In this document: positions 638-2,075 of the stretch, one piece after another
Position numbering within the stretch: the first letter of the stretch is position 1
How the letters are laid out: each line of letters opens with the position of its first letter
Origin: a virus
Virus record (IMG/VR): IMGVR_UViG_3300045988_169357
Location: 1 to 36,262 of that record
DNA length: 36,262 nucleotides
Direction: 5' to 3' (one strand)
Notes under the pieces: model-generated
What the model saw: the letters and a program-made list of their open reading frames with translations, nothing else
The model's database searches: none
Told to the model about the DNA's origin: nothing
Program-made: the position numbers and the translations under genes

Positions 638-659
638 TTACACCAAAATTACACCAAAA
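638..659 (+). repeat. Two tandem TTACACCAAAA repeats, candidate integrase arm-type sites (left arm of attP)
   Basis: Exact 11-mers at 638-648 and 649-659, immediately after the int stop codon. Confidence 0.5.
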
Positions 660-668
660 CCTAAAAAT

Positions 669-700
669 AAACCGCTGATATATTGAAATATCAACGGTTT
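669..700 (+). terminator. Hairpin after int (aaaccgctgatat...atatcaacggttt)
   Basis: Stem of about 12 bp with one bulge and a short loop. The trailing T-run is weak. Confidence 0.45.
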
Positions 701-712
701 ATTAAATATAAA

Positions 713-732
713 TGGTGCGGATGAAGGGACTT
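713..732 (-). other. Candidate attP core resembling a tRNA 3' end
   Basis: The minus strand reads AAGTCCCTTCATCCGCACCA. This parses as part of a T-loop, a T-stem 3' half (CCCTT), a 7-nt acceptor strand (CATCCGC), a discriminator A and CCA. It lies between the two arm-repeat clusters next to int. Confidence 0.4.
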
Positions 733-802
733 TTGGTTTTTTTTAAAACATTAAAAAGTATTGCAAATACTGGCTTTTATTGTTTTGTACATTTGCTTAA
801 AA

Positions 803-854
803 TTGCACCAAAATGATTGTTTTACACCAAAATTGCACCAAAATCACACCAAAA
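803..854 (+). repeat. Four further T(T/C)(A/G)CACCAAAA repeats, candidate arm-type sites (right arm of attP)
   Basis: ttgcaccaaaa at 803-813, ttacaccaaaa at 822-832, ttgcaccaaaa at 833-843 and tcacaccaaaa at 844-854. All share the orientation of 638-659. Confidence 0.5.
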
Positions 855-981
855 AAGTAGTTATATATTTTTCTATAATTTTATTATTAATGTTATAATA
901 TTTACATATATTGTAATAGCAATTTAATACAATTTTATCAATATTTACTTTCTCAATTTCTTTCAACATTTCTTTTTCCAT
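844..981 (-). CDS. Small hypothetical protein (45 aa), below the ORF-track length cutoff
   Basis: ATG at 981 preceded by GGGAGGAATACAT (strong SD). Translates MEKEMLKEIEKVNIDKIVLNCYYNICKYYNINNKIIEKYITTFLV. No recognisable motif. Confidence 0.3.
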   Translation of the reverse strand: MEKEMLKEIEKVNIDKIVLNCYYNICKYYNINNKIIEKYITTFLV

Positions 982-1029: not shown

Positions 1030-1107
1030 GTTACATTTGTTTAGATTAGAGTAACAATCCTTGAGAGATAGATAAGTTCCAGTTGTCTATCTCTTTTCTT
1101 TTTTTAT
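1030..1107 (+). ncRNA. Candidate small RNA (about 75 nt) between the promoter and an intrinsic terminator
   Basis: No ORF or SD is present. There is a 5' hairpin tgttac(1029-1034)/gtaaca(1051-1056). The terminator stem is 1063-1072/1086-1095, followed by ttttcttttttt. Confidence 0.4.
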
Positions 1108-1117
1108 TATATTTTAA

Positions 1118-1149
1118 TGTCGAAAAAAGTCAAGAAAAATCGTTCGACA
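1118..1149. promoter_or_regulatory. Spo0A-box-like sites upstream of the XRE/Spo0E-like gene
   Basis: TGTCGAA at 1118-1124, a degenerate AGTCAAG at 1128-1134, and an inverted TTCGACA at 1143-1149. The 0A-box consensus is TGNCGAA. Confidence 0.45.
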
Positions 1150-1231
1150 CAAAGCGTTCTCTACCAGCTACATCTAGCACTTTTTTGAATAATTATATAA
1201 AATAATAAGATACTATTTTAAGAGGTATTTT

Positions 1232-1555
1232 ATGTTTATTTTTAGAATTAAAGAGGTTAGAGAAAAGAAAAATATGACTTTATATAAATTAGAAAAAGAA
1301 ACTGGTATTAGTAGAAGCTATTTACACGCATTAGAAAATAATAAAAAAAGCAATCCTTCCTTGGCTACAATGTATAAAATTTCTAATGTATTAGATGTAA
1401 ATATAAGAGATTTATTTTATGCTACAGCAGATATAAATAGTTTAAAAGAAGAAATGTATGCCAGGATAGATAAATATGGTTTAAATTCTCCTGAAGTTAT
1501 GGAAATAAGCCATGTAATAGATTTGTTAATCAATATTGAAATGCAAGAAAAATAA
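1232..1555 (+). CDS. XRE-family HTH protein with a Spo0E-like C-terminal helical domain
   Basis: The N-terminus LYKLEKETGISRSYLHALENNKKSNPSLATMYKISNVLDV looks like HTH_3. The C-terminus LKEEMYARIDKYGLNSPEVMEISHVIDLLIN resembles the Spo0E-family SQELDxLI region. SD AAGAGG precedes the ATG. Confidence 0.7.
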   Translation: MFIFRIKEVREKKNMTLYKLEKETGISRSYLHALENNKKSNPSLATMYKISNVLDVNIRDLFYATADINSLKEEMYARIDKYGLNSPEVMEISHVIDLLINIEMQEK

Positions 1556-1564
1556 TAGAAGAGC

Positions 1565-1768
1565 TTAATACTCTTCTATTTTATACAAATCTGTTAATTC
1601 TACATCTAATGCGTAAGCAATTTTAACTGCATTATTGAATTTTATATTAATATTCCCGTTTTCAAATTTTTCTAGTTCTTTTATGTCCACATCTGCTTTT
1701 TTTGATAGTTCTTCTAATGTAATTTTTTTGCTATCTCTTATTTCTTTAACATTAATTTTTACTTTCAT
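1565..1768 (-). CDS. Small XRE-family HTH regulator
   Basis: ITLEELSKKADVDIKELEKFENGNINIKFNNAVKIAYALDV is an HTH_3 pattern. SD GTAGGAGGA is present. Confidence 0.75.
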   Translation of the reverse strand: MKVKINVKEIRDSKKITLEELSKKADVDIKELEKFENGNINIKFNNAVKIAYALDVELTDLYKIEEY

Positions 1769-1868
1769 TTTTTATCCTCCTACATATATATATATTTCCC
1801 AATTATAAAAAAATATTTTGGCATAGCAATACATTTTAACAATAATATGTATACAACAGTAAAAGAGA

Positions 1869-2015
1869 CTAACTTGCGTTAATCTCTTTCATTTTTGCAT
1901 TTATTAATTTGTCCAGCTTTTTACTTTGTCTCAATATTATGCTATATTCTTTTTCTTCTGTAATTAATTTTTCTAGTCTTGCACGGTTGCGGATTATTAG
2001 CAAGTCTATACTCAT
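1869..2015 (-). CDS. Spo0E-family aspartyl-phosphate phosphatase-like protein (48 aa), absent from the ORF track
   Basis: ATG at 2015 with SD GAGGTG (2021-2026). Translates MSIDLLIIRNRARLEKLITEEKEYSIILRQSKKLDKLINAKMKEINAS. SKKLDKLI matches the Spo0E signature SQELDxLI. Confidence 0.65.
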   Translation of the reverse strand: MSIDLLIIRNRARLEKLITEEKEYSIILRQSKKLDKLINAKMKEINAS

Positions 2016-2056
2016 TTAATCACCTCTATTAATTATAGCATATTATGTTAATTATA

Positions 2057-2075
2057 TGTGTCGAAATTTGTCGAT
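2057..2075 (+). promoter_or_regulatory. Tandem Spo0A boxes upstream of the Spo0E-like ORF
   Basis: TGTCGAA (2059-2065), ATT, then TGTCGAT (2069-2075). The 18-nt block tgtgtcgaaatttgtcga is identical to 18245-18262. Confidence 0.55.

Follow-up and report, generated by a model that had tools for sequence, protein, structure and literature searches.

Candidate Spo0A-Activated Promoters with Tandem 0A Boxes Precede Accessory Genes of a Gut Temperate Phage

The stretch of DNA analyzed here comprises positions 1 to 36,262 of the IMG/VR virus record IMGVR_UViG_3300045988_169357. This 36,262-nucleotide (nt) stretch, hereafter called the window, is a complete, circularly permuted genome of a temperate phage. 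Within it, an 18-nt block (TGTGTCGAAATTTGTCGA) carrying two adjacent matches to the 0A box, the binding site of the host regulator Spo0A, is found at two widely separated sites. Each site precedes a small accessory gene on the minus strand, and we refer to the candidate promoters that contain the blocks as P1 and P2. P1 faces a Spo0E-like open reading frame (ORF) and P2 faces an ORF for a zinc-ribbon membrane protein. This temperate phage of a prevalent gut Clostridiaceae appears to use Spo0A as an activator of accessory genes.

The Phage and Its Host

The phage genome has a guanine-plus-cytosine (GC) content of 28.4%, and the minus strand carries nearly all of its genes. Its ends (1-119 and 36144-36262) are identical over 119 nt, which yields a circular assembly of 36,143 unique base pairs (bp), and a tyrosine integrase gene (~35650 to 633) crosses the circular junction. 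At the genetic switch, a cI-like gene (34838-35179), accompanied by a gene for an ImmA-like peptidase, faces a cro-like gene (34651..34457). No close relatives were found among sequenced phages, and the head region is at most 69% identical to that of Anaerostipes phages. However, exact copies of the proteins encoded downstream of both P1 and P2 are present in many human-gut metagenome assemblies, where they reside in prophages on contigs of up to hundreds of kilobases (kb). Host genes adjacent to these prophages are labeled “Clostridiaceae bacterium” in NCBI, and one gene on the host contigs scores as a SigH equivalog (234.7 bits versus a cutoff of 208). The host is an uncultured human-gut member of the Clostridiaceae that encodes SigH.

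An 18-nt Block with Tandem 0A Boxes at Two Sites

The original prediction held that the block occurs exactly twice and that an identical 18-mer at two such sites would not be expected by chance. Both statements are borne out by our searches. The two copies lie on the plus strand at 2057-2074 and 18245-18262, and no further copy exists in the whole window even when up to three mismatches are allowed. Shuffled sequences are expected to yield 0.03 matches, and none of 100 shuffles contained two copies. The flanks of the two 18-mers share no similarity past the 18 nt, and the identity therefore resides at the level of the motif. Recent duplication of the two sites was rejected on the same grounds, given that flanking homology is absent.

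As had also been claimed, the 18245 copy forms a perfect TGTCGAA-N3-TGTCGAA (Table 1). The 2057 copy combines one perfect heptamer with TGTCGAt, such that the two sites together hold three perfect 0A box cores and one that matches at six of seven positions. When read on the minus strand, where the downstream genes are encoded, both blocks take the form (T/a)TCGACA-AAT-TTCGACA-CA. The boxes at both sites are arranged head-to-tail with a center-to-center spacing of 10 bp, or one helical turn. Thirteen of the 18 positions of the block fall within the boxes, and the remaining five (AAT and CA) are each found in only a minority of comparable sites elsewhere.

Motif scans against simulated or shuffled controls gave a divided answer. 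A scan for paired boxes 10 bp apart with no more than two mismatches in total recovered only the 2057 and 18245 sites, compared to a mean of 0.085 from Markov simulation. Likewise, the perfect heptamer TGTCGAA is more common in the window than expected (6 versus 1.13), with none of 100 shuffles reaching six. In contrast, the degenerate motif TGNCGAA is not significantly enriched (8 versus 4.5 expected), as 10 of 100 shuffles reach eight. The boxes in the window are restricted to accessory-gene promoters, plus three isolated matches inside genes, and the intergenic region of the cI/cro switch (34651-34838) contains no TGNCGAA.

Architecture of P1 and P2

At both sites, the proximal box is followed by exactly 18 nt and then by an extended -10 element of the form TGnTATAAT or TGnTATACT. 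P1 and P2 therefore each present a sigma-A -10 element, with no -35 element at 17 ± 1 bp. The sole -35-like hexamer, TCGACA, is located 21 bp from the -10 hexamer, and is therefore too distant to function unaided as a -35 element. In both promoters the distal and proximal boxes fall at about -50 to -44 and -40 to -34, respectively. Comparison by eye with consensus sequences revealed no resemblance to promoters of the SigH, SigE/K, SigF/G, or SigD classes, nor to binding sites for LexA, CodY, or CcpA.

Downstream of the -10 element, P1 is followed by GAGGTG and an ATG at 2015, and P2 by a leader of ~28 nt, GGAAAGGG, and a GTG at 18185. The blocks lie 41 nt (P1) and 59 nt (P2) upstream of these start codons, and the earlier estimate of about 45-60 nt was thus approximately right. 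Their description as promoter-proximal also stands, given the fixed distance to the extended -10 element. The P1 and P2 genes are self-contained, terminator-flanked accessory units (morons), in agreement with their original designation, as judged from their own promoters and terminator hairpins, their placement between phage genes, and their variability among relatives.

Table 1. Positions of promoter elements, hairpins, and ORFs associated with P1, P2, and P3
Feature	Position	Strand	Remarks
P1 proximal 0A box, TTCGACA	2059..2065	-	Perfect heptamer; about -40 to -34; 21 nt upstream of -10 hexamer
P1 distal 0A box, aTCGACA (6/7)	2069..2075	-	About -50 to -44; 10 bp from proximal box
P1 extended -10, TGCTATAAT	2032..2040	-	Sequence reading; 18 nt past proximal box
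Bidirectional terminator hairpin between Fic/Doc gene and P1	2082..2110		13-pair stem; T runs on both strands
Spo0E-like ORF, 48 amino acids (aa), behind P1	1869..2015	-	GAGGTG ribosome-binding site; Pfam SpoOE-like, below cutoff; profile match to PDB 2bzb
Terminator-like hairpin 3' of Spo0E-like ORF	1860..1891	-	
XRE-type helix-turn-helix (HTH) protein, 67 aa	1565..1768	-	Pfam HTH_19/HTH_3; downstream of Spo0E-like gene, always with cassette
SinR-like HTH protein with Spo0E-like C-terminal tail, 107 aa	1232..1555	+	Pfam HTH_3 and SpoOE-like
P3, third 0A-box promoter	1106..1151	-	TGTGTCGAA-cgatttttc-TTGACT-N16-TATAAT; faces 45-aa ORF 981..844
P2 proximal 0A box, TTCGACA	18247..18253	-	Perfect heptamer; 21 nt upstream of -10 hexamer
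P2 distal 0A box, TTCGACA	18257..18263	-	Perfect heptamer; invariant in related phages with other cargo
P2 extended -10, TGATATACT	18220..18228	-	Sequence reading; TG.TATACT invariant in alignment A4
Zinc-ribbon membrane protein, P2 cargo, 95 aa	17898..18185	-	Pfam Zn_Ribbon_1; ORF swapped in relatives
Terminator-like hairpin 3' of P2 cargo ORF	17864..17889	-	Directly before tRNA-Trp (17782-17855)

The Same Geometry Recurs in Other Viral Contigs

The exact 18-mer is present in 24 viral contigs. In those with low GC content, seven or more unrelated small genes lie behind it at an identical spacing. Matches in viral contigs of 40-45% GC have a coding-like context and lack a -10 element, and we consider these to be chance occurrences. 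A broader scan, in which the three central bases were left free (TTCGACANNNTTCGACA), returned at least 119 contigs, which were divided by GC content after removal of near-duplicates.

Among the matches listed, contigs below 33% GC contribute 36 nonredundant sites. At 21 of these, TGNTANNNT is found at an offset of 18 nt, whereas it occurs once each at five other offsets and never in the opposite direction. The 26 sites from contigs of 33-42% GC include a single instance at offset 18, with isolated hits elsewhere and scattered singles without a preferred offset in the opposite direction. None of the 31 sites from contigs of 42% GC and above has the element at offset 18, and two isolated hits occur in the opposite direction. 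Composition alone would lead one to expect ~0.1 hits at offset 18.

Fifteen sites were drawn solely from the unbiased scan. Their N3 linkers have ten different values and their 18-nt spacers are unconserved. All fifteen nonetheless share the boxes, the TG, the TA..(A/C)T, and a T that precedes the distal box by two bases. Such a pattern reads as the signature of two heptamers that are presumably contacted by protein at a fixed distance from the -10 element. The genes behind these tandem-box promoters are mutually unrelated and include at least six diverged Spo0E-like ORFs, an Ltp/PASTA lipoprotein, TM2 zinc-ribbon proteins, and SHOCT/bPH proteins. The same promoter design recurs before many unrelated cargo genes in other gut phages.

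Two additional arrangements were observed among the viral contigs. In one group of 34-37% GC (L122, L143, L150, L170, L180, L157, and similar contigs), the tandem boxes lie 14 nt before TGnTAnnnT. This places the proximal TCGACA at the normal 17-bp distance of a -35 element, where Spo0A would be expected to compete with sigma factor. Also, one viral contig (L011, ~660-700) carries three TTCGACA boxes in 10-bp register, with the middle and distal boxes at the standard distance from the -10 element and the third at about -30.

Connections to Spo0A in Bacterial Genomes

The core binding site of Spo0A is TGTCGAA, and the C. difficile protein has the same specificity, with perfect boxes predicting binding (PMC3485338). 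Tandem boxes 3 bp apart in phages phi29 and Nf are footprinted by Spo0A (PMC2731898). An exact search for the 18-mer across 185,579 species genomes (596 Gb) gave 73 matches. Fifty-one of these are in Bacillota, and the other 22 approximate the number that chance predicts for a database of this size. Only 7 of those 22 fall outside open frames of at least 150 codons, compared to 37 of the 51 Bacillota matches. The non-Bacillota matches have a coding-like context and no -10 element, and were treated as chance.

Several matches in spore formers lie near known Spo0A targets. Two are located 146 nt (L050) and ~180 nt (L078) upstream of spo0A itself, as identified by TIGR02875 scores of 380 and 212 bits, respectively. 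Another is in the abrB-metS intergenic region of Domibacillus tundrae (L082), which has more 0A boxes nearby, including a classical TGTCGAAtatTGaCGAA pair (TGTCGAA-N3-TGaCGAA) that adjoins the abrB -10 element. A further match occupies a gpr-rpsT intergenic region. At several loci, the boxes number three or four and keep a 10-bp register.

The phage itself does not appear to supply the regulator, in that none of 31 ORFs in the early region encodes a response-regulator domain or a Spo0A-type DNA-binding domain. We infer that the host has spo0A from its SigH gene, its taxonomy, and the Spo0E-like genes of the phage. The host sigH gene beside the prophage has no 0A boxes upstream.

A separate group of 18-mer matches from Lacrimispora, Hungatella, and their relatives (L035, L036, L037, L041, L052, and L097) shares ~80 conserved nucleotides (..tctcacaatg..ttga..) after the 18-mer. 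These Lachnospiraceae loci adjoin a gene for a YhcG-like nuclease, and the conserved region may be the end of a mobile element or a structured RNA.

The P1 Cassette Encodes Spo0E-Like and SinR-Like Proteins

The 48-aa ORF behind P1 scores 20.2 bits against the Spo0E family (Pfam PF09388), which is under the cutoff of 23. Six diverged homologues that reside behind the same type of promoter score 17-22.7 bits over the same profile region. A profile built from eight homologues matches PDB 2bzb (E=4e-4), a Spo0E-like phosphatase of Bacillus anthracis, with S..LDKLIN aligned to SRDLDKLIN of 2bzb. The conserved S-x-x-x-D motif of Spo0E is SQELD and lies within a helical hairpin. The corresponding residues are SKKLD in the 48-aa ORF and SHVID in the tail of the 107-aa HTH protein encoded nearby. 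In alignment A1, neither the D of the motif nor the I that comes next varies.

With a score of 33.8 bits, the tail of the 107-aa protein passes the SpoOE-like cutoff. It shares 33% identity with the 48-aa ORF over 33 aa, and the best PDB match of the HTH domain of the 107-aa protein is SinR (E=1.5e-9). Based on these similarities, the 48-aa protein could dephosphorylate phosphorylated Spo0A (Spo0A~P), antagonize the SinR-like protein, or both.

The Spo0E-like gene, the 67-aa HTH gene, the SinR-like gene, and an ORF of 45-58 aa constitute a cassette that is invariably positioned at the end of the prophage beside host DNA, in proximity to the attachment site. This cassette is present at no fewer than four integration sites and on at least three different phage backbones, and one variant (L003) has lost the Spo0E-like gene. 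No match to the cassette region was found among sequenced phages.

The 45-aa ORF at the very end of the prophage is faced by a third promoter with 0A boxes, P3, whose spacer holds a second, inverted box (1118-1124). The P3 sequence GTCAAG..CGTTCGACA is invariant among prophage variants. Furthermore, the module in which a box is followed by cgatttttc and TTGAC is also found at chromosomal loci of other Clostridia (L040, L066, L028, L046, and L055), in one instance before a gene for an AgrC-like histidine kinase.

P2 Anchors a Site of Cargo Exchange

P2 and its gene occupy a slot between a head-morphogenesis gene and the scaffold gene. Four relatives (L156, L216, L233, and L018) share 88-89% identity with the window over the region that runs from the minor-capsid gene to the end of the promoter. 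Their cargo ORFs are fully divergent, and identity of 92-94% resumes at the hairpin, the tRNA-Trp gene, and the scaffold gene. Whereas the window encodes the 95-aa zinc-ribbon membrane protein at this position, L156 and L216 encode a 218-aa Ltp/PASTA lipoprotein and L018 encodes a 139-aa membrane protein. In L233, the 218-aa Ltp/PASTA lipoprotein gene is followed by a 124-nt match (82% identical) to the leader and start of the zinc-ribbon ORF of the window.

Six variants of the slot with respect to cargo all retain the boxes, TG.TATACT, and the ribosome-binding site unchanged, whereas the N3 linker and the spacer vary. The P2 promoter is therefore the conserved anchor of the cargo-exchange site. 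The equivalent slot of Anaerostipes phages lacks boxes, and its content is different in phage AC844P1. Weak sequence similarity hints at functions for the cargo, such as exclusion for Ltp-like proteins, and PHROGs places the cargo proteins only in families of unknown function.

P1 and P2 as Probable Spo0A~P-Activated Promoters

It is likely that the boxes are Spo0A sites within a promoter. The direction of control can be argued from geometry, and the effect of Spo0A on P1 and P2 is probably activation. Activation fits better than occlusion because the spacing between boxes and -10 element is strict, only one orientation is used, and no usable -35 element is present. We therefore favor the interpretation that P1 and P2 are sigma-A moron promoters activated by Spo0A~P through consensus tandem 0A boxes, and consider it likely to be correct.

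One plausible sequence of events is as follows. When Spo0A~P builds up in a lysogen, two Spo0A molecules would occupy the boxes on one face of the helix, and the protein bound at -40 would help sigma-A RNA polymerase initiate, as occurs at Spo0A-activated host promoters. Because consensus boxes imply high affinity, a low level of Spo0A~P should suffice for a response of P1 and P2, at an early point of the transition to stationary phase, in keeping with the scheme of high and low Spo0A~P thresholds quoted in PMC2731898. P1 would then yield the 48-aa Spo0E-like protein, which may restrain Spo0A~P or pair, in the manner of SinI, with the neighboring SinR-like protein, and P2 would yield its exchangeable membrane or surface protein. 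Thus, the prophage probably turns on the genes behind P1 and P2 as its host nears stationary phase or sporulation.

A contrasting explanation accepts the boxes as genuine but has Spo0A~P act as a repressor. Here a constitutive extended -10 promoter would express the morons until they are shut off at sporulation, as occurs with abrB and phi29, with Spo0A bound at -40/-50 or over an alternative -35 element. Such an element can be proposed for P2, where a scan also gives TCGACA-16-TATATT and would put both boxes inside a core promoter, and every characterized phage use of 0A boxes is repressive (PMC2731898). However, the alternative core is not conserved, since the equivalent spacing in P1 is 12 nt and the other 15 sites show no -10-like conservation at that location. 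Moreover, neither a strict 18-nt distance to TGnTAnnnT nor a single orientation would be necessary for simple occlusion, and the boxes lie upstream of the core contacts of RNA polymerase, leaving the -10 element and the start uncovered. We consider repression unlikely for these reasons. It is improbable that the block is the operator of some regulator other than Spo0A, such as an XRE/SinR-like HTH protein (1232..1555 or 1768..1565) or another host response regulator. Although two HTH genes adjoin P1, and a promoter class of constant geometry could in principle belong to any activator, the motif corresponds twice over to the published Spo0A core. It is also a direct repeat, whereas dimers of the XRE type usually bind inverted repeats. 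In addition, the same architecture appears on many phage backbones and on chromosomes, including beside spo0A and abrB, in settings that lack these phage HTH genes, and the exact 18-mer is enriched in Bacillota only.

The identity of the two blocks might instead be historical or accidental and without regulatory role, for example, a recombination scar left by mobile moron cassettes. Five of the 18 identical positions do lie outside the boxes, and cargo exchange shows that recombination has occurred at the P2 site. This origin is nonetheless highly improbable, because no shuffle produced two copies, the flanks lack homology, the boxes and the -10 element are invariant while the nucleotides between them vary, and the offset to the -10 element is statistically extreme.

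Returning to activation by Spo0A~P, several considerations weigh against it. Extended -10 promoters can fire without a -35 element, and the boxes might merely modulate, or even block, a promoter that is constitutive. For exclusion-type cargo such as Ltp, constitutive expression, including during growth, would be the more natural expectation. The predicted start site of P1 would leave a leader of just ~11 nt, and the distal box of P1 is imperfect (aTCGACA). Finally, spo0A was not found on ~60 kb of prophage-linked host DNA, and the counts from viral contigs are lower bounds.

We propose more tentatively, and with somewhat less than even confidence, that two 0A boxes, an 18-nt spacer, and an extended -10 element form a portable, standard moron promoter used by many prophages of low-GC gut Clostridia. 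By this means, prophages may tie surface and exclusion proteins, and repeatedly small Spo0E-like proteins, to the sporulation decision of the host. The latter arrangement would create negative feedback, in which Spo0A~P induces a phage Spo0E-like product that either lowers Spo0A~P or releases a SinR-like repressor. If these proposals are true, the feedback loop would determine the threshold at which abundant human-gut commensals sporulate, and could shift spore formation by gut bacteria and hence their transmission. The rule TTCGACA-N3-TTCGACA-N18-TGnTAnnnT would predict which prophage genes respond to host entry into sporulation. Such a promoter would also provide a compact, strong, and probably low-threshold Spo0A reporter for Clostridia.

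Comparison with Known Systems

Among the closest precedents for P1 and P2 are the spoIIG and spoIIE promoters of Bacillus subtilis, which use sigma-A and owe their activation to 0A boxes situated upstream, over the -35 region (PMC12090719). P1 and P2 share with these a sigma-A -10 element and 0A boxes at a fixed position over -35 to -55. They differ in that their boxes match the consensus (those of spoIIG are weak), their -10 elements are extended, and they reside in a phage upstream of accessory genes, where activation is our reading of the geometry. The 21-bp distance of their -35-like hexamer from the -10 element is close to the 22 and 21 bp of spoIIG and spoIIE, respectively.

The P1 cassette resembles sinI-sinR of B. 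subtilis, in which a promoter activated by Spo0A~P drives a gene for a small helical antagonist beside that for a ~110-aa HTH repressor with a similar C-terminal tail (PMC7643835). Likewise, the 107-aa protein of the window best matches SinR in PDB and its tail is related to the 48-aa ORF. However, the Pfam family matched by the small ORF and by the tail alike is SpoOE-like, with its S..xD.LIN motif, rather than SinI. The two genes in the window are also convergent and do not form an operon. The layout thus recalls SinI/SinR, with a Spo0E-type helical domain as its building block.

The original prediction compared the tandem boxes to the arrangement at abrB and to the 0A boxes of phi29, and each analogy holds only in part. 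Two head-to-tail heptamers with 3 bp between them are indeed seen next to abrB in D. tundrae, but abrB boxes lie downstream of the -10 element in the opposite orientation and repress, whereas the geometry in the window is of the activator type. Similarly, the genomes of phi29 and Nf carry host Spo0A sites, including pairs 3 bp apart, that couple the phage program to sporulation (PMC2731898). Those phages are lytic, however, and the boxes lie across promoters of the early and late genes as well as replication origins, where they repress. In the window, boxes of the phi29 type, positioned over core promoters or origins, are not observed, and the cI/cro switch is free of them.

Homologues of Spo0E that are thought to manipulate Spo0A~P have been described in temperate phages of Firmicutes, gut phages among them (10.1101/2021.07.15.452460). 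Bernard et al. link phage Spo0E, AbrB, and Rap to quorum-sensing receptors and describe no Spo0A-box promoter, and the window lacks a receptor of RRNPP size. In the SPbeta prophage, the cargo gene sunA requires Spo0A (PMC6391423). This is likewise Spo0A-linked prophage cargo, but its control is indirect, through AbrB and Rok.

To our knowledge, phage Spo0E genes are known only as annotations. Phage 0A boxes that repress, as described for lytic Bacillus phages (PMC2731898), phage homologues of Spo0E, and the indirect Spo0A dependence of SPbeta cargo are already known. In the literature that we searched, no account was found of activator-type tandem 0A boxes in front of prophage accessory genes, and their presence upstream of accessory genes in a temperate phage appears to be new.

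Additional Features near P1 and P2

Several other features of the window were noted near the two promoters. The tRNA-Trp gene (CCA; 17782-17855, minus strand) starts ~8 nt past the hairpin of the P2 cargo gene, too close to accommodate a separate promoter. Its transcript probably arises by read-through from P2 or from the late operon. On the other side of P2, a gene on the minus strand (18425-19507) encodes a homologue of minor capsid protein 2 that has an ADP-ribosyltransferase exoenzyme domain at its C terminus (Pfam PF03496, E=1e-8). An HNH endonuclease gene lies between the minor capsid and ADP-ribosyltransferase parts in one relative (L116).

Directly upstream of P1, the minus strand (2099-2766) encodes a 159-aa protein of the Fic/Doc family, preceded by an overlapping 62-aa ORF, and the two are a probable toxin-antitoxin pair. 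Near P3, the plus strand (995-1105) carries a near-consensus promoter (TTGACA-17-TATACT, 995-1023) followed by a ~75-nt RNA with two hairpins and a U tract (fold z = -4.29). Most prophage variants conserve this RNA, which runs opposite to the leader of the 45-aa ORF and is a candidate antisense small RNA. An Rfam scan of the window returned only the tRNA-Trp, with no family for the 995-1105 RNA.

Finally, the region between the integrase stop codon and the accessory cassette (641-854, plus strand) contains six copies of CACCAAAA in two clusters. These clusters lie beside a strong hairpin (666-703) and are possibly the integrase arm-type sites of attP.

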